A stretch of DNA of 64,000 nt from Candidatus Bathyarchaeia archaeon (GTDB lineage Archaea > Thermoproteota > Bathyarchaeia > 40CM-2-53-6). Under the pieces are notes generated by a model that saw only the letters and a program-made list of their open reading frames with translations, was not told the origin of the DNA and did no database searches. The position numbers and the translations under genes are program-made. Positions 26,488-55,911 of the stretch are shown here, piece by piece; the first letter of the stretch is position 1, and each line of letters starts with the position of its first letter. The DNA is taken from contig JBEKVV010000002.1 of the NCBI GenBank assembly GCA_049513715.1, forward strand, positions 448,001-512,000, written 5' to 3'.

Positions 26488-27795
26488 ATGAATAATCGAA
26501 GTGTCGTTGCCCTCACAATTTTGCTTTCGATTATAATGCTCATGGTGGGGCTTTCTGCTATTGCTGCGGATGAGGATGTGAATGTTGGACTTTTGCGAGT
26601 CTCGGTTCAGCATCCCAGGTTTGCTGCCCCATCGTCCCACGTTTCGTTCTTAGTAGATGTTGAGTATGCAGTTCACGACAATGCCACCATCAAATCGAGC
26701 TTGTTTAGCGGAACTCTAGACCAACTGGGACCAGACCTGTGGCATAGTGAAGCAGTACCGATTCAGGGGCCCATTCTCGGGGACAAGACATGGACAGTTG
26801 ACCTTACCGCGCCGGCCAATGAAGGAGAAATGCAATTCGTGGCCATCGCATACTATCAAAACACTGGAAAATACAGCCCCAATGATACAACCGACAATCA
26901 GACCTCTGCGTGGTCCTATTACAATGACACCGACCACGGCCCGAGTTTTCTTGAATTCACGGTGAAGATCTCGCAGACGGCACAATTGGAAGTCGATTTA
27001 GGCGTCTCCAATGTGGCCGTGAGAATGGGCGATTCAACTTCAAAAACTTCGGGCGAAGGAGCGGTGGCTTCCCAATTCAATGTTGGGGAGAACGTCACGG
27101 TAAGTGTGCCGGAAGTATTGCCCCTCGACAATTCTACCCAGCTGGTTTTCCAAGGCTGGCAGGGCGGTGGGAACTCAACGGAGACAAGCGTTCTGTTGGA
27201 TGGTGACATCAAATTGGTCGGTGTCTATAATCCACAGTATTTGTTGCGGGTAGATTCTCCGGCATCGGTGTACGCTCAATCCAAATGGTACGAGCCCGGC
27301 TCCAACGTGACTTTAGAAGTGAACAGCTCCGTGCCGATGGATTGGCCTTTAGGAGCGTTGGGGGTGCATTACATTTTCAAGGGTTGGACGGGTGATGTGA
27401 CTTCGAACTCTAACAAAATCACTTTGATCATGAACACGCCGAAGGTTGTCAACGCTAACTTCACACCGGACCTCACACCGTTGGTTCTTCCTGGTATTTT
27501 CATAGTTGGAGTTGTGGGAGGTGTGGCTCTTGCTTTGGCTCGTAGGCGTAAAGCTGCAAAAAAGGCTCCCGCTGAAGAAGAGATAGTTGAAGAAGCTGCA
27601 GGAGTTGAGGAGGGTGACGTGCCTGCCATAGAGGAAGCGACGGGAGAGGACTCCGTGCCCAAAGGGAGTCAGTCATCGGAAAAGGGTCCGTTGAAATTCT
27701 GTGATGGCTGCGGTGAATCAATAGAGGAGAACTGGACGCACTGCATCCACTGCGGGAAGGCTCTAAGAGGAACTTCGGAATCCATCCAAAGCTGA
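26488..27795 (+). CDS. Membrane-anchored surface protein with InlB-B/Flg_new-like repeats, acidic linker and cytoplasmic zinc ribbon (paralog of 15539-16795)
   Basis: Signal peptide; VFQGW and IFKGWTGD...MNTPK..NANF; TM+RRRK; CDGCGE...HCIHCG. Confidence 0.85.
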   Translation: MNNRSVVALTILLSIIMLMVGLSAIAADEDVNVGLLRVSVQHPRFAAPSSHVSFLVDVEYAVHDNATIKSSLFSGTLDQLGPDLWHSEAVPIQGPILGDKTWTVDLTAPANEGEMQFVAIAYYQNTGKYSPNDTTDNQTSAWSYYNDTDHGPSFLEFTVKISQTAQLEVDLGVSNVAVRMGDSTSKTSGEGAVASQFNVGENVTVSVPEVLPLDNSTQLVFQGWQGGGNSTETSVLLDGDIKLVGVYNPQYLLRVDSPASVYAQSKWYEPGSNVTLEVNSSVPMDWPLGALGVHYIFKGWTGDVTSNSNKITLIMNTPKVVNANFTPDLTPLVLPGIFIVGVVGGVALALARRRKAAKKAPAEEEIVEEAAGVEEGDVPAIEEATGEDSVPKGSQSSEKGPLKFCDGCGESIEENWTHCIHCGKALRGTSESIQS

Positions 27796-28362
27796 AAAGG
27801 CCAAGTCCCCGATTTCAGGAATAAAATGATCGGCCGCTATGATGAGGAAGGCCACTGCGAACACACCCAGAATCAAACCCGTGGGGTAATGCGCTAGTGA
27901 CCAAGGCAGCACGCCGTTGTAGAGCAACCACACTTCAAAGACTATTCTGCCCAGATTGGTCAGGTAAACGCTGATTGCCACGACACTGAACGCAAGGACG
28001 CGTTTCTTGATTGTAACCTTAGGCATCGCCACAATGATGCCCAGGAACACTGCAATCACTTGAACGCCTGTGCACATTCGCTGAATCTCAAACTCATTAA
28101 GAAACACTTGGCGCCCTTGCATCCATACGGTTCCCTTCATGCCAACCAAGCTCATGAGAATCGCTGAGTGCTCGGCGGTGAGCTTCTCATAGAAGAAGTA
28201 GTCGGGCAGGTAGTATACGGCCAGTGCTATGACCGAGGCAAGTCCTACAATTCGAGCTATCGCGTAAAGGCGTTTCCGAGGGGTAGCCTCGAAGTCTTGC
28301 ATACCCATACCCATACCCACCAGTAATGGGGAGGGTAATGAAAGTTGCTCGGTACTATTCAT
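27763..28362 (-). CDS. Archaeosortase/exosortase family protein, Cys type (compact)
   Basis: FEIQRMCTGVQ (Cys), NLGRI (Arg), AHY (His) in a ~5-TM protein. Confidence 0.85.
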   Translation of the reverse strand: MNSTEQLSLPSPLLVGMGMGMQDFEATPRKRLYAIARIVGLASVIALAVYYLPDYFFYEKLTAEHSAILMSLVGMKGTVWMQGRQVFLNEFEIQRMCTGVQVIAVFLGIIVAMPKVTIKKRVLAFSVVAISVYLTNLGRIVFEVWLLYNGVLPWSLAHYPTGLILGVFAVAFLIIAADHFIPEIGDLAFSALDGFRSSS

Positions 28363-28436
28363 GCGAATCTAGCCTCAGCCGCATACCTGAGGGTGGGGAC
28401 TGAGGGCGAGAGTTCGCAAAAATGAAATAAAGTCAC

Positions 28437-29861
28437 ATGGTCTTCCTAGGTGAAATCGTCACAAAGAAGGCTCAAATAACATTGAAACTTGGAACTGTCA
28501 TCGCTGCTTGTCTGTTGCTCGGAATATTGGTTGGCCTACCCACCGCCCACGCGTCGGCAGATGTGGAAGCTAGGCTTACCCTTGCCATCGACTGGATTAG
28601 TGGGCAGCAAGTCTCAAGCCTTCAGTACGTCGGTTTCGCTAGGGGCACAGACGCCGAGACAGATCACACCGTCTACTCATCGGATCAAGCACTAATCGCC
28701 TTAGCGTTGAGCGACTATCACACCAACCATAACGACGCTCAGTATGACAATATGCTGCACGCGGCCGCAACATTTCTGAGTTCAGCCCGCACCTCGACAG
28801 GAGACTTCTATGAGTACTATGACATGAAACGTGGGAGTTGGGTTCATTTGGGTGATTTTGATTCATGGGAGGTATATGCAATAGCAGGACTAGCGACATC
28901 AGCCTACAAAATCGTATTGAAAGACAGCGGTCAACGCGCATACTGGCTTTCCATCGAAAGCCGATTGAAGAATACTGTCAATGTTTTTCTCCAGCACCAA
29001 AGAAGCGATGGTGCTTGGGTGTTCCAAACTAGGCCAGGCTACTACGAGGCACCGACGAGGGAGAATGCTATCTTGTTGACGGGCCTTCTCTACTTGGGTT
29101 TGTTTGAACGCAATTGGGGAAGCATCCAGCAAGCCACGTTCTACGGACAGCTATCACAGCGAACGGCCCGATGGCTCTTCTCGACTCAAAACGTAACCGC
29201 CGGACCATTGTTCGGTGGGTTCCCAACGTCTGATTTGAATTCAACCCAGACCTCAGAAACCAACGGCCAAGTACTTCTGGGCGTGGACACATACTACACG
29301 ATAATCGGTGTGCTTCTTTCGCAGCCGTCGCCCAACTTGTACGATGCGAGGAGAGTGATGAGTGGGTGGATTTATGGTTACGCGGAAGAAATGCGTGACG
29401 CCTACGGTGGACCCTTCGATGGTCGAACGGCAACTGCAATTCTTCAATACCCGAAGACAACGCTCGCAGCAATTTGGATGCTGCAAGCTCTGGCGGACAT
29501 TTGGATAAACCTCGGCGGCGATGAATTCTTCGGCGTTTCACAACATGCCTATGATTGGATCGTGGGCAATAACGAGCTTCAACTAGACATGCAGGGCGCG
29601 GCGAATGCAGCTGGCACAACCGGAGGTTTCTACACCTCGATAAGCGGTGGTGGGGTCGATAAAACTGCGAGCACTGAGACTACGGCCGCAGGGGTCTATG
29701 GGATTGGTAGAGCGGCTTTCACTCATGTCCCAGAATTCCCCGTCGCTGAAGCACTGCTACTGTTCATAGTGCTGGTCGGAGTACTGGCTATTGTTGAGCG
29801 AAGCGGCGGACGCAGATCTAGGAAACCGAACAGTCATTGCGCGGATGAGTTCTTGGCTTAG
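28437..29861 (+). CDS. Secreted alpha/alpha-toroid-like protein with PEF-CTERM sorting signal
   Basis: Signal peptide; QRSDGAW and Q....GGFP QW-like motifs; VPEFP-TM-RRSRK (VPEF at 29727-29738). Confidence 0.75.
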   Translation: MVFLGEIVTKKAQITLKLGTVIAACLLLGILVGLPTAHASADVEARLTLAIDWISGQQVSSLQYVGFARGTDAETDHTVYSSDQALIALALSDYHTNHNDAQYDNMLHAAATFLSSARTSTGDFYEYYDMKRGSWVHLGDFDSWEVYAIAGLATSAYKIVLKDSGQRAYWLSIESRLKNTVNVFLQHQRSDGAWVFQTRPGYYEAPTRENAILLTGLLYLGLFERNWGSIQQATFYGQLSQRTARWLFSTQNVTAGPLFGGFPTSDLNSTQTSETNGQVLLGVDTYYTIIGVLLSQPSPNLYDARRVMSGWIYGYAEEMRDAYGGPFDGRTATAILQYPKTTLAAIWMLQALADIWINLGGDEFFGVSQHAYDWIVGNNELQLDMQGAANAAGTTGGFYTSISGGGVDKTASTETTAAGVYGIGRAAFTHVPEFPVAEALLLFIVLVGVLAIVERSGGRRSRKPNSHCADEFLA

Positions 29862-30331
29862 GCGGGAATCTTTCGTTTAACCGCGCGTTTCGCTACTAGT
29901 GTTGCCGCAATTGCGAAGATCATCAGCGCCGAGAGCATTTGAGCTGGGAACTCGGGTACTGGGACATGCGACTCTTCCAAAAAGAAGTTAATACTACTCA
30001 CGGAGCCGTCCGAAACGGCCACCGAGGAACTCTGCGGCTGGTAACCTTGCACGTAAACACTCACGTTGTAAACTCCGCCGGGCACATACATGCCGTATTG
30101 GCCGCCTCCGCCGCTGGAGGTTGTGAGTTGAATTTGCTGATTGGCTGCAGTCACTTGTGCCCAGGATATTGTTCGAAGGTCGTTGTACATCGTGTACCCA
30201 TATACCGTGCCCTCGATGCGACCTCCGGCCTGGGTAGGATTGTTGTGGCTTTGTGCGGAAACGTTACTTGCCCCCACAAATAGTAGGGCGACGACAATGG
30301 CGATTGCGATCATGTAGGGTAGCAGCCTCAT
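29858..30331 (-). CDS. Small secreted carboxypeptidase-regulatory-like beta-sandwich protein with PEF-CTERM
   Basis: Signal peptide; GRIEGTV...G.Y...VPGG.YNV....GY; VPVPEFP-TM-KRAVKRK. Confidence 0.85.
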   Translation of the reverse strand: MRLLPYMIAIAIVVALLFVGASNVSAQSHNNPTQAGGRIEGTVYGYTMYNDLRTISWAQVTAANQQIQLTTSSGGGGQYGMYVPGGVYNVSVYVQGYQPQSSSVAVSDGSVSSINFFLEESHVPVPEFPAQMLSALMIFAIAATLVAKRAVKRKIPA

Positions 30332-30554
30332 GGGTTATCGTTAGTTCTGAGTGGCGAATGGGCATTAAAGGTTGTTGTGTGTTCTCCACATTTTCTCATG
30401 TCTCTATTCATTCTACCTGATTGTGTAGCTACAATTCACATGGTTAACGAAACGCGTTTCGCAGACGTGCCCTTAGCGAGTTAGCCTCTCTCGGAGGACA
30501 GTTAACCGCACATGAATAGCGCAAACGTGCCGCCGGCCCATCTTACGGGATTTA

Positions 30555-32909
30555 ATGGTCGCAGTGGGGAAGGTAAATCACTCGAAGTTGAAGCAGGCGG
30601 TTATGAAACGAGTCGGGACTTTGATGAAAGAAACCGCAAGAATGCTGGCTCTTCTTCTATTCGCCACCATACTGCTCACACCGCTCATTGCAGGGGCTGT
30701 TGCTGGTCAGCCACGGCCTAACAACTCCGTGGCTGCCTCTACATCTTCAGAGTCAAACAAAGTCCCGGACTTCTATGCCCAGGGAACAAGTGGGCTATAC
30801 ACCTTGGAGATCTCACCGAAGGGTGGCTACTTGAAGGGTAGCGGGCCAACGATTAACTTCATTCCGTGGCGGTATGTTACAACTCAATGGTCCCTCGGCA
30901 CGGTGTACGTCATATTCCTGGTCAACGTGACGAACACGAACTTCTACATCGGTTACCTGTACCTGACCAATTCATCGTCGCCGTTCATTCTGCGCACCTT
31001 CCAGTACCAGGGCGCAGTGTTGAGTACCTTGACGTTCGACGGCATTCAATACGTATTCTCTAGGATGGTGCCTACTTCCTCGGTCCCTATGCCAAAGTTG
31101 TCAATCGATCCCCGGCCTCAAAGTGCCAATGTTCTTTCGGCGATTGGCCCGGAAATCTACTTGAACGGCAACTCCGGAACAGTGGTTAATGATACTACAA
31201 GGTTGAAGCTGTACCCGTTATTGGACCAATTGTTTCAAGGCGCAAATGCCTACAATGAGCTTTGGTCATTGCTGACTGATGATTTCGGCAACTACTATTT
31301 CTCCATCCTCTACTTCCAGAACGGTGATTCTCACCACATCATAATCGAACACCGCTTACGATTGAACGATTACATGCGCTTGGACGGGGCAACTTTCGAT
31401 GCCAACTGGACTACTACGCCCTTCACTGACAAGATGACGGTTCGATTGCCAAGTGCCAACTCGGTGGTTAACGTCGATGGTTTTCCATTCTTGGCGGACG
31501 CTAGGGGTTTAATGTCGGCCCTTTTGCCTCAAGGCCCGACCACCGTAGCCGTTTCGGATGAAATCACGCCGACACCTGACACTAGGCTTCACTTCTCGTC
31601 TTGGAGCAACCACGAAGCCGTTAATCCTCTCACGGTGCAATTGAACGGCCCCCTCGACTTGACTGCCAACTTCGCCACACAGTACCTGCTAGGCATAGAC
31701 AGTGAATACGGTGGGGTGCAAGGTGGAGGGTGGTATGGCAAAGGTTCAGTGGCTAACTTCTCCGCGACTGACATGATCACATCCGATAATGGAACCAGAC
31801 GTGTGCTCCTTTCGTGGAGCGGAGACTTCTCTTCCACTTCAACTCAAGGCACGCTCACCATGAATGCACCTAAACACATAACTGCGAACTGGAAGACCCA
31901 ATATGAAATGCAAATTCAGCTCGTCGGCGTTCCACCAAACGCCTCTGCTCAAGTCGTTGTGAACGACCAAGAACAAGTGATACAATCCTCTCAACCAACG
32001 AAATTATGGACTGACGCAAATTCGCAGCTAGGCATACAAGTCGTAACAACCCAAATTCTAGGAAACAGTGTAAATTACAATTTCACCGAATTACGTCTTG
32101 ACGGAAACGCCCCTGGACTGAACATCGACGTAAGCAAACCTCTTACAATCTCGGTCGTCTATTCCGATGTTCCCAAAGCCGCGTCGAGCATTGATCTGAA
32201 AGTGAACCCGACAATAGGAGTTCCAGGTTACCCACTGACAATAAGTGGGTCACTCACCTCGGCAGCACAACCTTCGACAATAAGCCTATCGTATGGTTCT
32301 GATAATGTGAACTGGCAGCCCCTAGCTGATGTTAGCGTAGGTACGGATGGACGATTTGCGTACACGTGGACCCCGGGTACCTCTGGTAATTATTCCGTTA
32401 GAGCCTACTTCCAAGGCGACGTAAATCACGCGCCAACTTCCAGAATAGTGTCCGTTCAAATCAAAGACTCAGCTCTACCATCCGTCGAAGATTCATTCAA
32501 CATACCCGCGCTCGCAAAGAGCATTCCTTTTGCTTCAACGGCTTTCGCGTTTGCGGGCTCCTTTATGACCATTGGTGCAGCAGTAGGAGTCCTGCTTCTG
32601 CCAAGTGCGTCTCCGACATTGGGCTACCTGATAGGAAGTTTAATCGTAGGTTTCGTTTTTGTTTTCCCGTTTTCAGCGGTTGTGCTCGCGGTCAAAGCTG
32701 CTAGAAGCAAACGAGGCCCACGTAGTGTCAGTCTAATCCCTCTGTTCCTTGTCTGGGTTTCGACCTTGGCGATAATGGTGACGAAGGGTTCCTCGGTCGC
32801 TTCATCAGGGTTGCTGCTACACGTCACGGCTTTGACGCTGATAATTAGCAATGCGTTGCTATTTCCGCTTGCATTTAGTGTTCTCCTAGCAAAATACGTT
32901 GCCACTTAG
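30555..32909 (+). CDS. Large surface protein with InlB-B-like repeats, Ig-like domain and multi-TM C-terminus (start probably ~30623-30641)
   Basis: Signal peptide; TQYLL.IDSEYG...GGGWY..GS, SWSGD...MNAPK.ITANWKTQY; Ig-like DG.F.YTW.P...G.Y.VRA.F.GD; ~4 terminal TMs. Confidence 0.8.
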   Translation: MVAVGKVNHSKLKQAVMKRVGTLMKETARMLALLLFATILLTPLIAGAVAGQPRPNNSVAASTSSESNKVPDFYAQGTSGLYTLEISPKGGYLKGSGPTINFIPWRYVTTQWSLGTVYVIFLVNVTNTNFYIGYLYLTNSSSPFILRTFQYQGAVLSTLTFDGIQYVFSRMVPTSSVPMPKLSIDPRPQSANVLSAIGPEIYLNGNSGTVVNDTTRLKLYPLLDQLFQGANAYNELWSLLTDDFGNYYFSILYFQNGDSHHIIIEHRLRLNDYMRLDGATFDANWTTTPFTDKMTVRLPSANSVVNVDGFPFLADARGLMSALLPQGPTTVAVSDEITPTPDTRLHFSSWSNHEAVNPLTVQLNGPLDLTANFATQYLLGIDSEYGGVQGGGWYGKGSVANFSATDMITSDNGTRRVLLSWSGDFSSTSTQGTLTMNAPKHITANWKTQYEMQIQLVGVPPNASAQVVVNDQEQVIQSSQPTKLWTDANSQLGIQVVTTQILGNSVNYNFTELRLDGNAPGLNIDVSKPLTISVVYSDVPKAASSIDLKVNPTIGVPGYPLTISGSLTSAAQPSTISLSYGSDNVNWQPLADVSVGTDGRFAYTWTPGTSGNYSVRAYFQGDVNHAPTSRIVSVQIKDSALPSVEDSFNIPALAKSIPFASTAFAFAGSFMTIGAAVGVLLLPSASPTLGYLIGSLIVGFVFVFPFSAVVLAVKAARSKRGPRSVSLIPLFLVWVSTLAIMVTKGSSVASSGLLLHVTALTLIISNALLFPLAFSVLLAKYVAT

Positions 32910-33096: not shown

Positions 33097-36000
33097 GTGG
33101 CGAGAAATCAGATGCGAAGCTTTCCATCGAAAAACAGCGTACTGCCTCTCCTTCTGCTGACTATCCTAACCCTAGGCCCCGCAATCCTCGCGCCCTTAAC
33201 GATGCGGGCCAGCCCTGGTCCCACAGTGTATTACGCGGACTCTCTTACGATGCCACTGCCCGCAACCCCACTGCCCTCGCCAGGCTCCACGCCACTCTCG
33301 CCAATATCAGGGATCGTCAAGGTGCTCGTAATTGCCGTGGAATTCTCCGACGTCAACCACACCAAGAGTATCGACCAGATCAAACAAGCCTACTTTGGCA
33401 CATTGTCCGCGTACTATGCGGCTGTTTCGTATGGAACGGTGTCAGTGCAGGGCGATGTCGTTGGTTGGTACCGCTTGCCCCATCCGATGGCGTACTATGG
33501 CAGGGATTGCACTTCAGTCGATGATTCCGACTGCAGTGGCCAGTTGACCTCGTGGTGGTTAGCAAGAGATGCAGTCAACGTCATGAACCGAGACCCAAAC
33601 GTGAACGTCAACAACTATGACTACTTCGTCTTCTTACACTCAGGGATCGGAGAAGAATCCAGTCACAACAAGGACACTGTCTGGTCAGTCGCATACCTCG
33701 CCGGAGTCTGGCTGCAGACAAAAGGGAAGTCGATCAGCTCCTTCGACCTCGTTCCAGAATTGGAGGACCAGGGCGCAATTCCCAATGGTGTGTACACGCA
33801 CGAATTCGGCCACCTACTCGGCCTTCCAGACCTCTATAACATATTCAACGGCCAAACGGTTCTCGGCCAATGGGCACTCATGGACAAGGGCCTATGGAAC
33901 GGCAACCCACCCGGATCCAGCCCAGCATGGATGGAGGCTTGGAGCCGAATGAAACTTGGATGGTTGAATGGAACCCGCTTGACGGTCGCACAAGATGGCG
34001 CTCTCGCAAGCTATACGGTTGACGCGGCCGAACTTCAAACGACCACTCTTCATGCGGTAGAAATTCCGATTACGACCACAACATACTACCTAGTCGAAGT
34101 TAGAGAGCGTATCGGGTTCGACCAGGCGCTTCCTTCAACAGGGGTCCTAATTCTCTACGTAGCCAGCGGCGGAACTACTAGAACCAACCAAGGTTCAACC
34201 AAAGTCACAATCATGAACGCTCATCCCAGTGTTCCTGGGCTGCAAAATGCGACTTGGAGTGTTGGGCAGGTTTTCACGGACACGAAGAACGACATAGCTG
34301 TCGCGGTAAATGGCGAAGTGGGCAACTCTTTCCAGATCACAGTAAACCGCCTAGGACCATTGCCAGACCTCGCCGTCTCGAAGATTTACACTCAACCAAC
34401 AACACTCACCCCGAACACTACTGTAACCATCCTTGTGGACATCAACAACCAAGGATCAGCGGCCGCGACCAATGTTCCAGTCCAGGTCTTCATCGACAAT
34501 CAACCTTTCGCAAACAAAATTGTAAGCCTTCAGCCAGGCGGGGCAACTGAGATTTCGCTAGCCTGGAACGCTCTCGCGGGCAGTCACATTCTCAAAGTCA
34601 TCATAGATCCCTATAATTCATTGAATGAGTTGAGCAGGGCGAATAATGTCGCCACGTACACTCTCAATGTCGGCGCCGAATCGCTGCCTGACTTCGCTGT
34701 GTCGAAGATCTACACTCAACCAACAAACGTGGACCCGAACACCACCGTGACAATCCTCGTCGATATTGTCAACCAAGGTACAGCAGCAGGAACGAACGTT
34801 TCCGTTCAGGTCTTCTTGGATAATCAGACCCTTGCGAATCAGATATTGACTCTTCAAGCGGGTGGAAGCACGGAAATCTCCTTGACGTGGAATGCTACGA
34901 CTGGAGGTCATCTGGTCAAAGTCGTTATTGATCCAGACAATGCGTTGACTGAGTTGAACAAAGCGAATAATGTGGCCACATACACGCTGAACGTGGGTCC
35001 CACAGCGATCATCACGGTTCCATTAGATGTTGGAGCCAGCAACGCGAGCGCCTGGGTTCAGATCAATGGTGTGAAGTACATGCCCAACAACTCATCTCAA
35101 GTAGTAGCGACCGTCGCAGTGGGGCCGGTCACAGTCGAAGTGGAACCCGCACTATACACTTCAAACGAGACCCGGCAAGCATTCGCGAATTGGTCGGATG
35201 GCAACCAGCAGAACCCGAGACAAGTGAACATAACCGCTAACACGCAATTGGGCGCCAAGTACCAAGCACAATATCTGCTGTCAATAAACAGGAACGGCGG
35301 AACCACATCGCCAGGGGGTTGGAACAATGCTAACAGCGCGGTTACCGTGGCTGCGAGTTCACCTAGCAACGTGACCGAACAGGCCTCCAGGCTAATGTTC
35401 AATGGTTGGTCTGGAGACATAAGCGCCTCATCCACTTCAATTACGTTGAATATGACGAAACCTGAAACCTTGACCGCAAACTGGAAGCAACAATACTACG
35501 TCAGCATAATTTCGCCCGTTGGTTCCGTGTCTGGTAGCGGTTGGTACGATGCCGGAACGCCTGCAACCATATCCCTACGATCGGCATTGGTCCAACAGAA
35601 CAACGTGCGCCAAGTGTTCGCAGGCTGGAGTGGCGGTACTGACAATCAGACCACCACTAAAACAATCGTAGTCAACGCCCCGACAATTCTGCAAGCGAAT
35701 TGGAAGACACAGTACCTCGTCCAAGTGCAATCGTCCTATGGAAATCCGACGGGCTCAGGCTGGTATGATGCTGGCAGTCAAGTACCGATTTCAGTGAGTT
35801 CGATGGTGGACTTCGGCAACAACACGCGAATAGTTTTCGATGGTTGGGAAGGCGACTACACCGGAACTGATGCGACGACAACTCTTACCGCAGATTCGCC
35901 CAAAACTCTGGACGCTCAGTGGACGACACAATACAGAGTCACGCTCAGAGTTGGCGGAGTTTCAAACGCAACAATGGCGAAACTACTCATCAACGATACC

Positions 36001-41068: not shown

Positions 41069-41279
41069 ATTCAACTAACAAAGAACCTTTTCCGTTCGTT
41101 TCCTAACCCGCGACATGCTCAGAGTCTGGGCGTGATTCTAACTCAATACTAACGGCATCGTTTCCCAGCCATATGCACCTTCTGCAAATACGCGTAGGGC
41201 AGTTTTGCCGCAACATTATAAAGCGAAAGGAGCGAAGGCCAGCAGTCATCCCGCAGGGGAATTTGTGAGGCCAACAATT

Positions 41280-47337: not shown

Positions 47338-48572
47338 TGAATCGCAGCGTAACCATGGACGAGGGTTTCCTCGTCAGAGTTAGTTTCCTTTTCACATCCG
47401 GGTTCATATTCGCAGAGGGACTCCAGAATTGGATTAGGGGGAACATAGAATCGCACCCCGAAGTCGTCCTCCTAATCTTGGTGAGTTACGGGCTTGCGTT
47501 CATCCTATTCATCTTTGCCACCATGAACACCGATGCGGTGTTGAAGGTCAGGGATCTAGCTCTCGTCGCTCTGATCTTCGTGACAATCAGTAGTTGGTAC
47601 GTGGTGACTCAGGTTGAGTTCCCAGGATCATACCAAACCGACGCTCTGGCCTTCGCTCATTACTCAGCTATCCTGTACTCGAAGGGGGTCAATCCGTATA
47701 CTCAAGACCTGCAAAGTGCTCTCTCGGCATTCGCAGTTAATCCACAGTTCTTCACGCTCACCCCGAACGGCGACCTGGTTACAAACCTCAATTACCCAGC
47801 CCTGCAATTCATCGTCCTTTTGCCTGTCGTCTGGTTAGGATTGCATGATGCACGCATCGTAATCTACCTCTTCGAACTAGCAGCCATCGTAATAATCTAC
47901 GTCTGGTCACCTAAAGAAATCCGGGCCTTGGCCATAATTCCAATTTTCGCGGGGTCCGACTTGGCTGTCAACTTCTCCGCGGGGGCAGTAGCGGATTTCC
48001 TCTGGGTCCTACCGTTGGTCTTGATGATTGTTTTTATGGACGACGTGCGGCTGTCGGGCATTATGTTCGGCCTAGCTAGCGCAATAAAACAAACCCCGTG
48101 GCTGCTCTCGCCCTTTCTACTGGTGTACTACCTCCGAAGCGGCTCAGGTCTTAACGCCAGGAGCCGACTGAAGCAAACCGTAATTTTCGGCGCGTTCGCA
48201 CTTGGCACGTTCCTTGTTCCCAACATTGGATTCATGTGGAACAATTTCAGCGCCTGGTACACTGGGGTTGTCACGCCGGCCTTCGGCAATCTCGTAGTAC
48301 TAAGCCAAGGGCTATCCCTCATAACCCTAGCAATTGGGATCCCATTGCCTCCTATTTTCTATTTGACAGCAACCCTAGCGGTCGCTGCTACACTGCTCAT
48401 TAACTACTACGTATACTACGAGAAATTGGCACTTGCCGTTTGGGCTTTTCCAGCCATCATACTATGGTTCTCCTACCGCGGCCTCCAGAACTACTTCATC
48501 TTCTGGACACCGTTACTCGTGATGGCCGTGGTTAAGCTCTACAAGAAAGGAGGGACACACTCTGCGCGTTAA
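47337..48572 (+). CDS. GT-C type membrane glycosyltransferase (GT87/PIG-M-like)
   Basis: YQTD...., G.NPY, NYPAL, GLASAIKQTPW; TGATG coupling with the upstream gene and GGAGGT RBS. Confidence 0.75.
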   Translation: MNRSVTMDEGFLVRVSFLFTSGFIFAEGLQNWIRGNIESHPEVVLLILVSYGLAFILFIFATMNTDAVLKVRDLALVALIFVTISSWYVVTQVEFPGSYQTDALAFAHYSAILYSKGVNPYTQDLQSALSAFAVNPQFFTLTPNGDLVTNLNYPALQFIVLLPVVWLGLHDARIVIYLFELAAIVIIYVWSPKEIRALAIIPIFAGSDLAVNFSAGAVADFLWVLPLVLMIVFMDDVRLSGIMFGLASAIKQTPWLLSPFLLVYYLRSGSGLNARSRLKQTVIFGAFALGTFLVPNIGFMWNNFSAWYTGVVTPAFGNLVVLSQGLSLITLAIGIPLPPIFYLTATLAVAATLLINYYVYYEKLALAVWAFPAIILWFSYRGLQNYFIFWTPLLVMAVVKLYKKGGTHSAR

Positions 48573-49410
48573 GCCCCGAATAGCGCTCATCACGGTCTCG
48601 GTTTGCATATTCGCGCTTTCAATTTCCTTCATTAACTTCTACGGTCAAATCGAACAGCCGTCACCAATCCTGAACGTTAACCAAAAGCTCTGGACCTTTG
48701 ACCCGACCAAGAACATAACCAAGCCATATCTTTGGGATGTGGACATCATCAAGGGGCCTCCTGACAACGTGTCCATCATCCAGGCCAACGTCCAAAACCA
48801 AGCAGCCATCGGGCTAATATTGGATCGTGTAAACCAAAACAACTCAAACGTATGGACCACACTGCACATTCGACAAGACCTGCACGGTCAAGCTCTCGAC
48901 GCCGTGTTCCGGTCCGAAATTTCACTCATGGTGTTCCCAACCTTCCACCTTTGGTTCGACGCCATAACGCATAGCCCGGAGAACGCGTTCGGCATTGAAA
49001 TCAACGACGGAACAAACCTCCTCTGGTTCGTCTTCAGTGACAGCCAAAGCCAAACATTCCAGCTACCCCATCACAGGATCGTCCTAACCGAAACTCCGCT
49101 GAACGAGTGGTCGACTAGGAATGTTGGCATTGCAGCCCAATGGCAAGCTGCGGGCTGGAAGAAACCCGATTCCCTGTCATTCATCCTCATACTAGGCACA
49201 ACGTTACTTCATCCTGGGACATGGGTCGGTTACTTCGCAAACCTTAGCGTCAACGTCGCCCCGTTTCAGGCCGAAAGTCTATCTTCAGGAGCACGGTTAG
49301 GTATCCTAATTGTGGATGCGTTAGTGATCTTGGGGTTGACAGCAATCATTTTGCTCCTAGAGAAACGCCAGGGCAATCGAAGCGGCGGCCGCCGGAGATC
49401 CAAGGCCTGA
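48562..49410 (+). CDS. Hypothetical protein with N- and C-terminal TM (probable CTG start)
   Basis: Frame is open upstream of the track start 48739 to CTG 48562, preceded by GGAGGGA; this adds an N-terminal anchor RVKPRIALITVSVCIFALSISFI. Confidence 0.7.
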   Translation: MRVKPRIALITVSVCIFALSISFINFYGQIEQPSPILNVNQKLWTFDPTKNITKPYLWDVDIIKGPPDNVSIIQANVQNQAAIGLILDRVNQNNSNVWTTLHIRQDLHGQALDAVFRSEISLMVFPTFHLWFDAITHSPENAFGIEINDGTNLLWFVFSDSQSQTFQLPHHRIVLTETPLNEWSTRNVGIAAQWQAAGWKKPDSLSFILILGTTLLHPGTWVGYFANLSVNVAPFQAESLSSGARLGILIVDALVILGLTAIILLLEKRQGNRSGGRRRSKA

Positions 49411-49411
49411 G

Positions 49412-50041
49412 GTGGAACCGATATCAAGAAAGACAAGGTCCAACTTGGTCGGCCGTGCTCGGCCAAGTCTTAGCACGACTACTCTGGGTGGATTGAGGGC
49501 AAATATATTTTCCATTATTTCAATCGCTTTCGGCATTTCTGCGCTCACAATGATTCTCGCCTCAACCTTCGCCCCATCAGGGCAAATAAGTGGCAGCAAC
49601 CTAGTCCTGATTGAAGTGGAAGTTCTGCCTGGGTTCTACATGAAGCCCATCACGTTTTTCCAATTCTCAATGTTTCTATCATTCGCTTTTGGCCTGAACA
49701 CTCCCATTACAAGGCAATACTTCCTTAAAGTCCGCCCCTCGATTCTCCGAACCGTCTACATAGGCGCGTGGCTGGTCGCGATGGGCAGCGCATTTGAAAT
49801 TCTCTATCAAGTCGTTATATGGTCAGCGTCGCTGGCAGTGCAGGGCCTTACAAACCCAGATATCATAGTCAACATCTTTCCCATCTCAGTGAACCCCGCG
49901 CCTATCAACGTCGTCTTCGCCGCGAAGATTATCGTGGCAATATTCTTCATGTCACTATTCCTGATAGACTATCTTCACCGAATTGACCGAACAAAGCAAG
50001 AGAATCAATTTGCAGAACGGCTAATTAACGCCCGCCGCTAA
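49412..50041 (+). CDS. Hypothetical membrane protein (~4 TM) adjacent to the sortase gene
   Basis: Hydrophobic helices; YMKP.T, FEILY...W, NPD.I.N.FP, N.VFA.K. Confidence 0.75.
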   Translation: MEPISRKTRSNLVGRARPSLSTTTLGGLRANIFSIISIAFGISALTMILASTFAPSGQISGSNLVLIEVEVLPGFYMKPITFFQFSMFLSFAFGLNTPITRQYFLKVRPSILRTVYIGAWLVAMGSAFEILYQVVIWSASLAVQGLTNPDIIVNIFPISVNPAPINVVFAAKIIVAIFFMSLFLIDYLHRIDRTKQENQFAERLINARR

Positions 50042-50107
50042 ACCCGCACAAGAATCGACAACTGATAGCGGAGAGCTAGTCAAACATCTAAGAAGAGGAA
50101 TTTCGTA

Positions 50108-51271
50108 ATGCACTTAAGACCACAGAAGAAAATCAAACGCTTCCTCAGCGGCGTATACGACGAATTTCACACACGAGACGCTATCCCCCTACTCATAATT
50201 GTCTTTCCAGTTATCTTCTTGATGATGATTGATTCCGCGTCGTTCTCTCTCGTCTGGTTCTGGGGGGGACAAATAGGCCGAGCCGGTTTCGCCTTCTTGT
50301 TCTTTCTCGTGGCGTGGGACTTTCACGACTCTCGAAAGAAACTCAAAGCGACGAGGGCGAAGTGGCGTTACGCGTTGGCGGGCGTCGCCCTTGCAGTTCT
50401 ACTGGTCTACTATTGGGAGCGAGTGATGAGTGCGGACTGGACTACATATCTGAGAGTGTATGTAACAAGTCAACTTGGCGTATCCCAGAAATCCCCGCTT
50501 AGTTTCTTGCTCGCAATGGATTTCGTCGTTTTCGCAATCTATTGCGCCATCGCGACAGCCCTACTCTACTCGCCTAAGGCGGTTGGGCTGATAGTTACTC
50601 CAATAATCTACGCCTTGGGTAGCGGGATCTTGGACATGATGGACGGTTACTTTCCGGAGGACTCGCTCGCCTTCCTCCAAATCTGGGTCTACGTGATTTG
50701 GAACGTGGTTGTATTTCTGCTCAGCCTACTCGGGTTCCACACGAACGTCAACCCGCTAACTGGAACCGTTCAACCACCAAGCATACAACTCATCGGCAAT
50801 AGGCTGCTGCTTTGGGGGTCAAAGGGTTTCATCACCCTAGCCATCTTTTGGCCTTCGTCCGGCGTAGTCAGCATGATCGTCTACAGCCTTGTTATTGTGG
50901 TTCTTATGGTAAAGCTCGACGCCCCCAGAAAGCGTAAAGCGATCTACGCGGCAATCGGGGCAGCCGGAACTTACCTCATCAACGTAATCCGCATCACACT
51001 AATCGTTCTATACGTGGCTTTCATCAGCCTCGACGTGGAAGCGTTCCACCAATCGATCGGTGAAGTACTTTTCATCACCTGGATCTTCACTTACCTGCTA
51101 TTCGTCATACGCAACGAAAACAAATACTATGTAAAAGTTGCAAGCTCCAAGCGGCCTGAGGCGAAAGCGGATCTGGCGGCCGCGAGGGTCAGCAAGAGTC
51201 GACGTCCTATCAAACGGAAACCAAAGAATCATGAGTGGCTAGAACGGGTCAAAGAGGCCCGGTTGAAGTAA
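50108..51271 (+). CDS. Thaumarchaeosortase-like (ArtG-like) archaeosortase with Ser at the catalytic Cys position
   Basis: Multi-TM; AIFWPSSGVVSM (Ser codon 50855-50857), PRKRK.IY, NVIRI (Arg), FHQSIGE (His). Confidence 0.8.
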   Translation: MHLRPQKKIKRFLSGVYDEFHTRDAIPLLIIVFPVIFLMMIDSASFSLVWFWGGQIGRAGFAFLFFLVAWDFHDSRKKLKATRAKWRYALAGVALAVLLVYYWERVMSADWTTYLRVYVTSQLGVSQKSPLSFLLAMDFVVFAIYCAIATALLYSPKAVGLIVTPIIYALGSGILDMMDGYFPEDSLAFLQIWVYVIWNVVVFLLSLLGFHTNVNPLTGTVQPPSIQLIGNRLLLWGSKGFITLAIFWPSSGVVSMIVYSLVIVVLMVKLDAPRKRKAIYAAIGAAGTYLINVIRITLIVLYVAFISLDVEAFHQSIGEVLFITWIFTYLLFVIRNENKYYVKVASSKRPEAKADLAAARVSKSRRPIKRKPKNHEWLERVKEARLK

Positions 51272-51357
51272 GAGTGCCCGTCGATTCGCACACCTCGTTC
51301 TCGGAGGCGGGTTCTTAAAGAGACTGATGGTCTACGGAATGATGTGGTTGGTAGGTA

Positions 51358-52083
51358 ATGGAACGAGGTAATCGGTTGGAACTTTCAATTCTCATTCCGG
51401 CGCATAATGAAGAAAAACGAATGGAGACCTGCCTAATCCGCCTCACCGACTTTCTCAAACAGACCCACCCCTATTCCGAGATAGTGATCAGCGAGGACGG
51501 GAGCAAGGACAGAACAGTCAAAATCGTGAACGAATTCAAACAGAAGAATTCCGAGATTCAAATCATCCTACTCCATGCCACAGAGAGGTTAGGGAAAGGA
51601 GGTGGCTTGAAACGAGGAATCGAAGTGTGCAACGGACAGTTCACCGTCTTCACAGACACGGACCTGCCGGTTCCATTGGAAACGATTACCCGGGCGGTAG
51701 AACTTCTCAAGGGGGGCGCGGATGTCGTAGCAGGAAGTCGTGTAATGAAAGGTAGTAAAAGGGATGAGCCATTGAAGCGGAGGATACTGAGCCGAGGGTT
51801 CCATTATCTAGCTCTTATTTCCTTGGGTATGGGCTGGGATTCACAATGTGGGTTCAAAGCGGTGAGGACGAGTGTTGGGCGCGATCTCTTTTCTCAAATG
51901 GCCAACCCCGGGTTTGCTTATGATGTCGACTTCTTGATTCAGGCGAAACGCAAAGGGGTAAACGTCGTTGAGATGCCGGTTGAGTGGCATTACAATACAG
52001 ATTCGTCCATGAGGCTCTCTAAGGATATTTTTGGGATGTTCAGGGAACTTGTCCATATTTTCTTCCAAGCCCGTTTCCCATAG
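51358..52083 (+). CDS. GT2 dolichyl/polyprenyl-phosphate hexosyltransferase (Alg5/DPM1-like)
   Basis: SILIPAHNEE, EDGSKDRT, GKGGG, FTDTD, VAGSR, DSQCGFK, FAYDVD, EMPVEW. Confidence 0.92.
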   Translation: MERGNRLELSILIPAHNEEKRMETCLIRLTDFLKQTHPYSEIVISEDGSKDRTVKIVNEFKQKNSEIQIILLHATERLGKGGGLKRGIEVCNGQFTVFTDTDLPVPLETITRAVELLKGGADVVAGSRVMKGSKRDEPLKRRILSRGFHYLALISLGMGWDSQCGFKAVRTSVGRDLFSQMANPGFAYDVDFLIQAKRKGVNVVEMPVEWHYNTDSSMRLSKDIFGMFRELVHIFFQARFP

Positions 52084-52182
52084 GAAGATGATGACTCCAA
52101 CCTTACGATACCTCGTCAGCCAGCAAACTGTAGAAAGATTCTAAAGACCACGTACACTGCACAGCTGAAACAGGTACCTATA

Positions 52183-53517
52183 ATGGTTCTGCAGAGCGGA
52201 CGCGGGTTCTGGGACATCACACTGCACGACCAAGAATTCAAACTTATTCTCATTGTTGCATCAACCCTCTGGGTATATACGACAATAATCCATCTTCCAT
52301 TCGTCGTTCCTAGCAACTACACTGACATTGGGTACTTGTGGATTCGCGACGTATACTCAGGACACAACAACATGGCCATTCCCTACGTGGACTACAAGCT
52401 TGAGTATCCACAGATGATCGGGCTGATAATCTGGATCGGCCAAGCAATCGGAACATACGCCCCGTTCGTGTTGGACGCTTACAACACGTACATGGTTGTC
52501 GAATCTGTTCTGCAATACCCATTCATGATTGGGACCATCTACAACATCTATGTACTTTGCAGCAAACTTGGAATCAACAAGAACAGAATCTACCTCTATT
52601 TGCTCACATCAATGACCTTCATGATTTACGGCTTCTACAATTGGGATTTCATAGTCGCATACTTCGCGAGCCTCTCAATCATGTACTATTTGGAGAAACG
52701 ATACGACGCGAGCTCCCTAGCCCTCATAGCCGGAATCTTGAGCAAATTCATACCTATCTGCATGGCTCCAGCAATGGTCTGGTGTCTGCCAAACAACAGG
52801 GCACGGGTAAGGTTCATCGCCATCGCCGGTTCAGTTTGGGGTGCTGTAAATGCGCCTTTCGTTCTAGCCAATATCCAGTTGAACCGGCCATTTTGGCTGC
52901 AACTTTACACGCACACCCAAAACCACCAACTGCAAAACACTTGGATATCGATGGTGATTCAAACCGCGGGCTTAGGAGACATCATTTCAGGACGAGGGTA
53001 CGGGCATTACCTCAGCTTAGGCATCATAGGATACTTGATTCTTCGCGCGCTGATCTCGAAGCGAACTCCACTTGAAAAGATTCTCCTATCATGGTACGCT
53101 TGGTTCGGAGCGATCTACCTGTTCGACCCGCAAATGTGGATCCAACTGTTTCCAATAATCATTCTGACCCCAAGCTTTGATTTCGTACTATACAGAATCG
53201 CCGACATGCTCAATGCCTTCATAATACTGTTTTACTTCATCGGAGGCAGTCGTCCAGAACTGCCGAAGTATCTTACTGACCAACTTACTCCCTTCGGGCT
53301 TGTTAACATATCAGCCGCATTACGCCAACTCATAGTCCTCGGAGCCTACTTCATCAGCTTCAACCCAGCGAGACAAGACCGACTCAAACGATGGAGGCGG
53401 TCAGTCTACACTTGGTTTGCTCGTCTATTGGGCGATGTTCCTAACCGCCTCGCGCAGATGCCTAGAGACTTGCTAGGCCCAGTTAGGCCTAAGGATGCGA
53501 GGCCTTCGAAATCGTGA
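52183..53517 (+). CDS. GT-C type glycosyltransferase (GT87/DUF2029-like)
   Basis: YTDI..LW, PYVDYKLEYP, YNWD, GILSKFIP, NAPF, PQ..I.L.P; multi-TM. Confidence 0.82.
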   Translation: MVLQSGRGFWDITLHDQEFKLILIVASTLWVYTTIIHLPFVVPSNYTDIGYLWIRDVYSGHNNMAIPYVDYKLEYPQMIGLIIWIGQAIGTYAPFVLDAYNTYMVVESVLQYPFMIGTIYNIYVLCSKLGINKNRIYLYLLTSMTFMIYGFYNWDFIVAYFASLSIMYYLEKRYDASSLALIAGILSKFIPICMAPAMVWCLPNNRARVRFIAIAGSVWGAVNAPFVLANIQLNRPFWLQLYTHTQNHQLQNTWISMVIQTAGLGDIISGRGYGHYLSLGIIGYLILRALISKRTPLEKILLSWYAWFGAIYLFDPQMWIQLFPIIILTPSFDFVLYRIADMLNAFIILFYFIGGSRPELPKYLTDQLTPFGLVNISAALRQLIVLGAYFISFNPARQDRLKRWRRSVYTWFARLLGDVPNRLAQMPRDLLGPVRPKDARPSKS

Positions 53518-53605
53518 AACTAATAATCCCTGCCTTCTTTTTCGAAGGAACAGCCTTCAAGCCCTTAAGTTAGTAGACTGAACAGTTTAGGCGGTAATGT
53601 AGCTA

Positions 53606-55252
53606 ATGCCAAGCGGAGCGGAGCTCAATGGTCTCGTAAGTGGCGGACTCGACGAGTTGGCTCCATTTCCGCACAGGGTTGCCGTTTGCGCGTATGGCCC
53701 TTCTTTTTACGCCAAGCCAGGAGCGTACATTGGTCAGGACCTTTTGGTAATTCGCGACAAGTACGCAGACGGTTTGCGAACTTATCTGAGAACCACCGAA
53801 AAACAGCAGACGAGGTTCCTACTCGTTGACCGCAGTCTGATCGAATCGGACATTGAGAGAGGAACTCTGGGCGATTTCCTTACTGAGAAACTTATCTACC
53901 CATACCGCGCTCTGGCAAACCAGGACTACCTAGATGACCTGAGCCTTCAAGCGGCCAGGCGGACAGTCAAAGAGGAAGCACGTGACCTCGTGCTGAACTA
54001 CGGCGAGATGTGCAGAGGGATTGTGGCTGCACCTGAGTTCTTCGGGTTATCGAAGCTCAGGCGGCGAGCCAGGGTCTTCGTCCCCAGCTTGGAAGACTAT
54101 CTGAGGCTACTTGACCCTGCAGTTCGACAACAGAACCTGTCAACTCTTCGCGAAGCATTCAGCAAAGCTGTCTCGGGTATGGGCGGCGACGGAGTGGAAT
54201 TTGATGGCGAGAATGTGGCATTTCAGGATCAGTCAGTGGATAAATGGCTTAAGGTCAGGTCATCCGAGCAAGCTGTCAATATCTTAAGGCATAGTCAGCG
54301 GGCACTCTATTCTTACCTCGCAAGGGGCCGCACGGTCTTTCTGAGCCCTGAGCTCCTTGCCCGGGAACTCAGTAGCCCCCTGAGGTTGAGCTTGGACCCG
54401 GACTTGGTGGGAAGGCAACCTGAGAACCCTAATAATTCTCTATACCTTCGTACAGAGGAAGGATTGGTTTCCTTCAACGAGCGGTCCAGTCTCGAAGAGA
54501 TGCTTTCGAAACTCAGGCCGGGACGGCCCATGACCGTGTCGCCATTGGCAGGGGTTCTGAACGAAGTATACCTAGTCACACTAGGAAGGGAGCGGTTTGT
54601 CGCAAAGAGGTTCACCGATTGGCACGGGTTCAAGTGGTTCACATTAAACCTCGTTTCCCTTGGGAGTAAACTCTTCTCAGTGTCTGGCAAGGCAAGATTG
54701 ACAAATGAGTACGGAATCAACCGGTACTTGGCCAAGAAAGGCCTGAAAGTTCCCCAGGTTATCAATGTCAATGTGAAGCAGCGAATCTTGGTTGAAACCT
54801 ACATTTCGGGAGTACCGATGAACGAATTTGTATCTCAGGCTATCGGCGGGGGCGCGTTAGGTACGTCTCAATACAGACTCGCCGAAGCCTTCGGCGAGTC
54901 GCTCGCGCGAATACACGAGGCGGGTGTTGCAGTCGGCGACGCGAAACCAGAAAACTTCGTTGCCAAGGGTGATGAGATCTACACAGTAGACTTGGAGCAG
55001 GCGGGGAAACACGGTGATCAGGCTTGGGACATCGCAGAGCTATTGTTCTACACGGGCCATTACAGCAACACCGCAACGCCAACACGCGGCTTCACCGAGG
55101 TTGTTGAGGCTTTCATACTGGGATATCTTAAGGCAGGTAACGCGAGGGAGCTCAAGCGAGCTACAGGTGCAAGATACGTCCGCGTCTTCTCATTATGGAC
55201 CCCAGCACCAATAATCGTTGAAATATCCAGGCTACTTCGGGAAGCAAAATAG
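53606..55252 (+). CDS. Degenerate nucleotidyltransferase-like domain fused to a Kdo/RIO/Bud32-like kinase
   Basis: N-terminal VCAYGP...QDLLVI; C-terminal VAKRF, NEY, LARIH...GDAKPENF, VDLEQ, AWDIAE. Confidence 0.75.
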   Translation: MPSGAELNGLVSGGLDELAPFPHRVAVCAYGPSFYAKPGAYIGQDLLVIRDKYADGLRTYLRTTEKQQTRFLLVDRSLIESDIERGTLGDFLTEKLIYPYRALANQDYLDDLSLQAARRTVKEEARDLVLNYGEMCRGIVAAPEFFGLSKLRRRARVFVPSLEDYLRLLDPAVRQQNLSTLREAFSKAVSGMGGDGVEFDGENVAFQDQSVDKWLKVRSSEQAVNILRHSQRALYSYLARGRTVFLSPELLARELSSPLRLSLDPDLVGRQPENPNNSLYLRTEEGLVSFNERSSLEEMLSKLRPGRPMTVSPLAGVLNEVYLVTLGRERFVAKRFTDWHGFKWFTLNLVSLGSKLFSVSGKARLTNEYGINRYLAKKGLKVPQVINVNVKQRILVETYISGVPMNEFVSQAIGGGALGTSQYRLAEAFGESLARIHEAGVAVGDAKPENFVAKGDEIYTVDLEQAGKHGDQAWDIAELLFYTGHYSNTATPTRGFTEVVEAFILGYLKAGNARELKRATGARYVRVFSLWTPAPIIVEISRLLREAK

Positions 55253-55266
55253 TCTCGGGATTCTCC

Positions 55267-55911
55267 TTGAACCGCAGAATTCGACTCGTAGTGTTCGATT
55301 TAGATGGCACATTGACCCCTGTCGACAGCCTCTGGAGCTACCTTCACGAGGCATTCGGAACTTGGGACTACGGAAAACTGGCTGCCCAGAAGTACAGGCG
55401 GGGCGAAATATCCTATAAAGAATGGGCCGAAACCGATTCTCAATACTGGGCGGGGGCACCTCTTACACAAGTAATGCAAGTGCTCGAGAAAATCCCCTAT
55501 CGCAAAGGCGCCGAACAAGTCTTCCAAGACCTCAAACGGGGTAACGTCAAGACCGCCATCGTAAGCGCGGGACTGTCGCTTCTAACTGACAAAGCAGGGC
55601 GAGATCTCGGGGCAGACCTCACCCTCTCCAATGAGCTACAAACCAATGACGGAAGGTTGACCGGAGGAATAGTTGTCAAGGTGGGCGTTAACGAGAAGAG
55701 AGAAATAATCGAACGAATCGCGATCCAATTGAAAGTCCCGCTAGCAGAAGTCGCGCTTGTCGGAGATCGAGCAAATGATCTCATGAACCCTGAATGCTTG
55801 AAGATCGCTTTCAAACCGAAGGATGAAAACGCTCGACAGGTTGCGGACATAATCATCGAAGATGATGACTTGAGCAAAATCCTCCCATATCTCGTCCAGC
55901 CAACTCAGTGA
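55267..55911 (+). CDS. HAD-superfamily phosphatase (phosphoserine phosphatase-like, subfamily IB)
   Basis: FDLDGTL, SLW..LH, IVSAG, SNEL....G.LTG, K, VGDRAND. Confidence 0.9.
   Translation: MNRRIRLVVFDLDGTLTPVDSLWSYLHEAFGTWDYGKLAAQKYRRGEISYKEWAETDSQYWAGAPLTQVMQVLEKIPYRKGAEQVFQDLKRGNVKTAIVSAGLSLLTDKAGRDLGADLTLSNELQTNDGRLTGGIVVKVGVNEKREIIERIAIQLKVPLAEVALVGDRANDLMNPECLKIAFKPKDENARQVADIIIEDDDLSKILPYLVQPTQ

Follow-up and report, generated by a model that had tools for sequence, protein, structure and literature searches.

A cysteine-type and a serine-type archaeosortase, with two classes of sorting tail, at a resident cell-envelope locus of a Bathyarchaeia archaeon

How do two archaeosortases of one cell, one with a cysteine and the other with a serine at the predicted nucleophile position, divide the surface proteins between them, and is the serine enzyme active? 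These questions are raised by a cell-envelope locus of a Candidatus Bathyarchaeia archaeon (GTDB lineage Archaea; Thermoproteota; Bathyarchaeia; 40CM-2-53-6). The locus lies in a stretch of 64,000 nucleotides, here called the window (GenBank assembly GCA_049513715.1, contig JBEKVV010000002.1, positions 448,001 to 512,000, forward strand). An initial annotation of the window had described it as an island in which two chemically distinct archaeosortases act on locally encoded proteins. From our analyses, we conclude that the locus is built from known kinds of parts, and that it is real and conserved. We consider it fairly probable that the enzymes form two pairs with their tails, in which the Ser enzyme, resembling the thaumarchaeosortase ArtG, goes with [IV]PE[FY] tails and the small Cys enzyme with IPG[FY] tails. 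We infer this pairing from genome profiles, gene neighbourhoods and one complex model.

The two enzymes and the four tailed proteins are encoded as follows (positions in the window; scores in bits, with the cut-off after the slash).

27763..28362, minus strand: small Cys-type archaeosortase of an unnamed subfamily, C97-R139-H158 (TIGR04178 41.2/23; heimosortase 42.6/130; AlphaFold model)
50108..51271, plus strand: Ser-type, thaumarchaeosortase (ArtG)-like archaeosortase, S250-R295-H314, motif WPSSG (TIGR04297 113.9/250; TIGR04178 40.9/23)
28437..29861, plus strand: secreted protein of 474 amino acids (aa), possibly an alpha/alpha-barrel, VPEF tail at 29727 (weak TIGR03463 match, E 7e-4)
29858..30331, minus strand: secreted 157-aa beta-sandwich (CarboxypepD_reg-like) protein, VPEF tail at 29959-29948 (profile, tail and synteny)
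33097..36309, plus strand: metalloprotease of the M6 family containing CARDB domains, with a Loki-CTERM-like IPGF tail at 36217 (TIGR03296 170/110.8; NF033507 33/19.9)
36607..41022, plus strand: secreted 1471-aa protein, VPEF tail at 40939, 14 Cys residues, 14 sequons for N-glycosylation

Both enzymes passed the exosortase/archaeosortase signature TIGR04178 and their triads align, in agreement with the initial annotation of one Cys-type and one Ser-type member of this family. The open reading frame (ORF) of the Cys enzyme encodes 199 aa and that of the Ser enzyme 387 aa; because homologues of the former are about 177 aa long, its true start may lie about 20 codons later. Residues C97, R139 and H158 are invariant in nine of nine aligned small enzymes, and in a profile-profile alignment (hhalign, probability 73%) S250, R295 and H314 of the Ser enzyme fall on them. 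The AlphaFold models (predicted local distance difference test, pLDDT, 78.7 and 80.5) have the order hairpin-nucleophile-three helices in common, and in both the nucleophile is predicted to open a helix after the beta-hairpin. Fold searches with both models against the PDB gave no significant match (Foldseek, none at E ≤ 0.001; VIA, best Z 6.9).

The Cys enzyme remained below every subfamily cut-off (besides heimosortase, ArtA TIGR04125 with 36.8/75 and ArtH with 34.9/200) and did not match the ArtC model. The best subfamily matches of the small-enzyme family are Asgard-type ArtH (NF041736) and heimdallarchaeosortase (NF045528), for which its homologues reach up to 57.6 and 57.9 bits, respectively. 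ArtH pairs with Loki-CTERM, the model that the IPGF tails pass, but the Cys enzyme itself is far under both cut-offs (34.9/200 and 42.6/130). The small enzyme was found in 14 of the 72 genomes searched, all within the order of the source genome, which is possibly Houtuarculales. Judged by its sequence, it is an uncatalogued subfamily of the exosortase/archaeosortase superfamily.

The best family for the Ser enzyme is TIGR04297 (ArtG), matched over its whole length with E 1e-32, and its score on ArtC (TIGR03762) is 26.8 against a cut-off of 100. PEFG-CTERM proteins are the assigned substrates of thaumarchaeosortase ArtG. With that family the Ser enzyme shares the WPSxG motif, the Arg, the His and the broad clade, and Ser at the nucleophile position is common to 74 Nitrososphaeria sequences and this enzyme. 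The system differs from ArtG/PEFG-CTERM, however, in its score below the cut-off, in PE[FY] tails without G, in its bathyarchaeial host, in the Cys found in most Bathyarchaeia members, and in the linkage of the locus to KaiC and GT-C genes.

All four tails were found where they had been annotated, in two classes, and each consists of the motif followed by a hydrophobic stretch and then Lys or Arg. Among the C-termini of the whole genome in which [IV]P-x-[FY] precedes a transmembrane (TM) segment and basic residues, x is E 16 times, G seven times and five other letters once each; because E and G dominate this position, the tails are not chance occurrences. After removal of five chance ORFs without I/V before Pro from 28 regular-expression hits, 23 tagged proteins remained, 16 with [IV]PE[FY] and seven with IPGFP. 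All seven IPGF tails passed the Loki-CTERM model NF033507 (24.3-33 bits); among the matches listed for the seven, PGF-CTERM was absent. Only one of the 16 PEF tails passed PEF-CTERM (TIGR03024), with which they share the motif, and PEFG-CTERM (TIGR04296) matched none of the 16. The assignment to ArtA and ArtC implied by the initial annotation is not supported: both enzymes stay under the respective thresholds, and it is Loki-CTERM rather than PGF-CTERM that the IPGF tails fit. Two further IPGF-profile matches, in another genome of the order (G036:C11:137177-137230 and G036:C3:144916-144966; G and L numbers are our labels for genomes and loci), lie in 27-aa open frames and are possibly orphan tail fragments.

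The distribution of the tails supports the two pairs. In 39 Bathyarchaeia genomes outside the source order, matches to our own PEF profile (A3, E ≤ 0.003) were present in 14 of 20 genomes with an ArtG-like gene and in three of 19 without (Fisher p=0.001, which is overstated because related genomes are not independent). When 30 of these loci were fetched and read, the best match proved to be a genuine PE[FY] tail in every one. PEF matches are also present in four order members (G025, G034, G036 and G040) whose sole enzyme of the two is the ArtG-like one, and two family members (G023 and G024) have neither enzyme and neither tail. Near 112 ArtG-like loci outside the genus we read 17 tails of the PE[FY] type, one of them doubtful, and none of the PG[FY] type; three small-enzyme loci outside the genus yielded one IPGY tail and no PEF tail, and ten Nitrososphaeria loci neither PE[FY] nor PG[FY] tails. 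One Ser-type copy (L338) has three PEF proteins as neighbours. Outside the genus, five genomes have the small Cys enzyme, and IPG[FY] tails were read in the sequence of each of them. The complex predicted for the Cys enzyme and an IPGF tail scored 0.64, against 0.00 for the best control, with 97% contact agreement and a partner pLDDT of at least 78; the mark used for this score is attained by 116 of 157 solved pairs, as opposed to 2 of 215 mismatches. In this model, the motif end is predicted to contact residues 96-99, 139 and 159 of the enzyme.

Several observations weigh against this pairing. The gene for the 157-aa PEF protein adjoins the Cys sortase gene, co-oriented, in all six genus loci read. 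IPGF tails occur without a detected small Cys enzyme in G036 (92% complete), G026 (84% complete), G005 and G022, and G147 (95% complete) has a true VPEF tail and no sortase match. Six of the 20 ArtG-positive genomes have no PEF match at E ≤ 0.003, and G330 has one putative Loki-CTERM match. The complex prediction covered the Cys enzyme with IPGF only, and close cousins of a partner pass it too. The fixed place of the Cys sortase beside the PEF gene and the four genomes with IPGF tails, together with motifs that are one residue apart, would fit an overlapping or swapped specificity, in which both enzymes read P[EG][FY] or the Cys enzyme serves neighbouring PEF proteins. However, PEF tails are common where the small enzyme is missing, ArtG-like genes have 17 PEF and no PGF tails nearby, and IPG[FY] tails hardly occur outside the order in which the small enzyme is present, so that we regard this alternative as improbable.

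With the two pairs as the preferred reading, secreted proteins would first be held by the C-terminal motif-TM-basic tail. Across the genome, 16 substrates with [IV]PE[FY] tails would be recognised by the ArtG-like Ser enzyme, and seven with IPG[FY]xxESI tails by the small Cys enzyme. Cleavage would take place at the motif or immediately behind it and proceed by way of an acyl-enzyme, with the participation of Arg and His, the intermediate being an ester for Ser and a thioester for Cys. The TM stub would be discarded and the new C-terminus passed to a membrane acceptor or to water.

This acceptor is probably not archaetidylethanolamine. ArtA/PGF-CTERM of Haloferax volcanii is the only experimentally studied template (PMC6098224, PMC7157517), and the Cys-Arg-His triad is established (bioRxiv 2023.06.07.544157). 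The Cys enzyme system shares with ArtA this triad, a tripartite tail and the PGF core, but the enzyme is only about 180 aa long and scores 36.8/75, and its tails are of the Loki-CTERM type. In Haloferax, cleavage requires PssA and PssD, and archaetidylethanolamine is the proposed nucleophile (PMC7157517); here, PssA (PF02666) and PssD (TIGR04217) were each found in none of five genomes, with the source genome in both sets and positive controls. Because this pathway was not found, the anchor chemistry must differ from that of ArtA, the cargo being released or joined to another lipid, and ArtA-type lipid attachment is not supported. The sole CDP-alcohol transferase of the source genome resembles archaetidylinositol-phosphate synthase (166 vs 180), and INO1 is present. 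The GT2 and GT-C enzymes encoded at the locus may glycosylate cargo or a lipid; that cargo is joined to a glycolipid made by them is speculation.

Whether the Ser enzyme is active is a question that its relatives help to answer. Among 133 distinct genomic ArtG-like sequences the nucleophile is C or S only and H314 is invariant. Cys is present in 39, from other Bathyarchaeia. Ser is encoded by TCN codons in the 74 Nitrososphaeria sequences and in 12 sequences of the source genome's subtype (WPSSG), and by AGY codons in eight of a second subtype (WPSVG), which is about 33% identical to the first and found in genus members. As a control, the invariant S255 is AGY in 132 of 133 sequences, and the variable column 260 does differ. 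Since it takes two substitutions to pass from TCN to AGY, but one from either of them to a Cys codon, Ser was reached at least twice, or the codon set was switched once with Cys as the only tolerated go-between, in parallel with Brenner's 'two serines' argument. A wider search counted 83 C, 50 S and one N among 50%-cluster representatives, with 30 further aligned pieces that fell short of the nucleophile site. On this wider set, FastTree, the least reliable tree method used here, required eight changes, at least four of them forced by starred branches. A metagenome scan gave 75 distinct ORFs, 12 with Ser (AGC) and 62 with Cys, in which the Ser groups nest within Cys clades and at least five changes are forced. 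Approximately unbiased tests on the three main Ser clades gave p=0.52 for all Ser together, p=0.54 for the two genus subtypes and p=0.31 for the genus with the order's Cys sequences, values compatible with different numbers of origins among these three clades. As far as sequences tell, most members of the Ser enzyme's family have Cys, which is probably the ancestral state, and Ser has arisen several times, in TCN as well as in AGY form; both findings are new here. The WPSVG operon differs in layout (L015 and L022, in G017 and G014): the sortase directly follows KaiC, a PF10131 gene is missing and two other membrane genes are present.

Because the drift is confined to C and S while Arg and His are fixed, we infer that the Ser-type nucleophile is active; Ser250 would then be an active nucleophile that has arisen from Cys several times within the family. 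Two points count against this: 38 loci were collected by a scan that in its first pattern demanded [SC], so that this portion of the C/S count is biased, and no assay of a Ser-type enzyme was found in the searchable literature. Alternatively, the Ser protein may no longer be a protease, but a tail-binding or lipid-handling scaffold for the GT-C operon, with the PEF tails as TM anchors or as substrates of the Cys enzyme. Cysteine proteases are usually inactivated by replacing Cys with Ser, the Ser gene sits within the run of GT-C genes, the repeated switches could reflect a relaxed need for a thiol, and the archaetidylethanolamine pathway was not found. A scaffold is, however, hard to reconcile with a nucleophile column that drifts between C and S only next to a fixed Arg and His, or with the ammonia oxidisers, where the Ser enzyme is the sole TIGR04178 gene in five tested genomes and is kept in 43 of 43 genomes of their family; we consider it distinctly unlikely.

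Oxygen is one possible cause of the switch to Ser. Heme-copper oxidase (PF00115) was over the cut-off in the source genome, in 21 of 22 genus genomes, in both other family members and in five of five ammonia oxidisers. It was detected in none of 16 genomes from other families of the order and none of 39 other Bathyarchaeia, so that all tested carriers of Cys-type ArtG were oxidase-negative. A full-length, high-scoring copy was present in 14 of the 22 genus genomes, and the canonical HPEVY motif was read in four of four fetched oxidases, covering both Ser subtypes. Oxidases in soil Houtuousia have been described by Hou et al. (PMC10321748). That Ser, in GTDB genomes, goes with lineages that carry heme-copper oxidases is a tentative lead, in a comparison with few independent contrasts among lineages of known host. 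Several cases run counter to it: the source genome keeps only a 68-aa remnant and a non-canonical enzyme, the small sortase of these cells has retained Cys, a distant fusion homologue in family f57, which has oxidases, also has Cys in five of five cases, Ser-type G384 (86% complete) has no oxidase over the cut-off, and Haloferax ArtA uses Cys-173 (PMC7157517). Given these counter-examples, oxygen as the sole cause of the switch was not accepted.

The 68-aa remnant, of an A-type oxidase subunit I, lies beside a conserved neighbour gene (C1:315304-315507) and suggests that the source genome has lost aerobic respiration. The non-canonical heme-copper oxidase (C9, L281:2962-5184; also in G001), which we take to be a gNOR-like nitric oxide reductase, has WWGLDMIAD in subunit I where the canonical motif is WFFGHPEVY and lacks the first CuB His, and its subunit II-like gene lacks the CuA cysteines. 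The f57 fusion proteins (L276-L280) are 850-945 aa long and end in an ArtG-like Cys domain (WPCTG or WPCAG).

The failure to find PssA and PssD in the searched genomes, the archaetidylinositol-type transferase and INO1 together prompt a bolder reading, which we hold to be distinctly unlikely: a natural serine intramembrane transpeptidase, repeatedly derived from a Cys ancestor and favoured where oxygen would endanger a thiol that faces outwards, in a TACK archaeon whose two enzymes, for want of archaetidylethanolamine, would both load an inositol-glycolipid anchor made by the GT2 and GT-C enzymes of the locus and resembling glycosylphosphatidylinositol.

The remaining genes of the locus, all on the plus strand, are listed here.

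30555..32909, plus strand: 784-aa membrane-anchored immunoglobulin (Ig)/InlB-repeat surface protein, several C-terminal TM segments, no sorting motif
41205..43508, plus strand: extracellular Ig domains, one TM segment and a cytoplasmic KaiC-like ATPase (PF13620; PF06745 89.9/26.6)
43554..44303, plus strand: single-domain KaiC-like ATPase (PF06745 190.6/26.6)
44378..45127, plus strand: conserved protein of no assigned family, hydrophobic segments at both N- and C-terminus (syntenic)
45130..47337, plus strand: GT-C-type membrane protein, PTPS_related (PF10131 39.1/26.4)
47283..48572, plus strand: GT87-like GT-C glycosyltransferase (PF09594 28.3/25)
48562..49410, plus strand: conserved membrane-anchored protein of no assigned function, CTG start probable at 48562 (sequence; syntenic)
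49412..50041, plus strand: small conserved multi-TM protein of an unnamed Bathyarchaeia/Nitrososphaerota family
51358..52083, plus strand: GT2 of the polyprenyl-phosphate sugar synthase type (PF00535 92.6/23.3)
52183..53517, plus strand: probable third GT-C, weakly supported (one homologue match and hhalign)
53606..55252, plus strand: fusion of an APH/Bud32-like kinase with an N-terminal nucleotidyltransferase-like domain (Polbeta at E 1.4e-4 in one of three homologues)
55267..55911, plus strand: HAD-IB phosphoserine-phosphatase-like hydrolase (TIGR01491 151.6/151.9)

The KaiC ATPases, the GT2, the kinase fusion and the phosphatase named in the initial annotation were all recovered. Of its three GT-C enzymes, two passed Pfam cut-offs; the third has no match of its own, one of its five homologues matches GT87 at 23.3 bits (cut-off 25), and its hhalign probability is 48%. 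PDB sequence searches with two GT-C profiles gave no match. The 49412-50041 product was considered as an obligate ArtG partner; this was rejected because G023 and G024 have it and the search did not detect it in the majority of ArtG carriers (21/80 genomes). The 36607-41022 product has paralogues elsewhere in the genome and is, by its sequence features, a candidate major surface protein; against S-layer families it gave NF052345 at E 0.0076 over 50 aa, and Atlas matches were all <0.9. An Rfam search of the window gave no match, and a scan of it for sigma-70 promoters and terminators, with a model unsuited to archaea, remained at chance level.

The whole genome (99.4% complete) has two TIGR04178 genes, both at this locus, and four of the 23 tagged proteins are encoded in the window, with 19 elsewhere. 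As these are the genome's only two sortases and so few of the tagged proteins are local, the locus is a housekeeping and not a self-contained one, and the proposal that the local proteins are the substrates was too narrow. Clustering is conserved within the genus: six other genomes carry both sortase genes on a single contig, separated by 12-23.5 kb, and have gene content in common there, and in the remaining genus assemblies that have both they are on separate contigs. The main ORFs from 30555 to 55911 are all on one strand, as annotated, but this co-orientation is not kept in the relatives, where local inversions occur. Outside the genus the genes are unlinked, with 505 kb between them in a genome of another family (G039), and two or three archaeosortase paralogues per genome are already known from Euryarchaeota (PMC6098224), so that an undescribed dual-sortase unit is not sustained. 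GC content is 0.48-0.55 throughout the region; this flat composition, the lack of flanking repeats and the synteny with housekeeping flanks led us to reject a horizontally acquired or mobile island. The locus is a resident, vertically kept cell-envelope locus with the genome's two housekeeping sorting enzymes.

The initial annotation had also proposed one co-regulated unit, in which KaiC and the kinase and phosphatase control S-layer assembly by both sortases. Across the order, the ArtG-like gene stays near KaiC and kinase genes. Of the ArtG-like loci that were clustered, 29 have a KaiC-family gene (the KaiC cluster being merged with one neighbouring family) and 19 the kinase, Cys-type loci of the order included, and one KaiC is fused to extracellular Ig domains. 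On the other side stand the variable orientation, the unlinked sortases outside the genus, the many substrates encoded elsewhere, the absence of KaiC from 39 of 39 Nitrososphaeria loci (30 of these with 1.5-kb flanks only) and the lack of a significant S-layer family match. We give this model little chance in its full form, although it and the two pairs can hold together.

Other sorting-related genes were observed. In G016, a third sortase of 267 aa with weak ArtC/CrtC likeness adjoins a 492-aa IPEF protein in a glycosyltransferase region (L032:9296-11583), and third sortase matches of similar size occur in G012 and G019. Other Bathyarchaeia families have a Cys exosortase fusion of about 690 aa that includes a Zn-finger-like segment and ends in a large domain (L140-L147 and L153). 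In G131 and G061, a 175-aa Cys exosortase-family gene lies between GT2 and KaiC (L162 and L169), and no PEF or IPG tails were detected in these genomes; these small sortases are a different family and were left out of the small-enzyme counts. Within the window, 15539-16795 and 26488-27795 encode paralogous secreted InlB-repeat proteins with a TM segment and a cytoplasmic zinc ribbon, and 20660-22645 encodes a secreted 661-aa protein with the zinc-protease motif HEAGHMLGLPH and an uncleaved TM and basic tail.

A literature search for archaeosortases together with Bathyarchaeia, or for thaumarchaeosortase, found nothing, although subscription papers and supplements may hold more. Ammonia oxidisers express PEFG-CTERM proteins, the levels of which rise under H2O2 (PMC6593220, bioRxiv 175141). 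While the clustering of two sortases alone is of modest interest, the locus adds an uncatalogued small sortase together with tails of the Loki-CTERM type, brings Bathyarchaeia into the ArtG lineage and implies that the anchor is formed in the absence of PssA and PssD. It also provides one intramembrane sorting enzyme in natural, matched Cys and Ser forms, and this makes the activity and chemistry of Ser-type archaeosortases, which are universal in the ammonia oxidisers sampled, directly testable.

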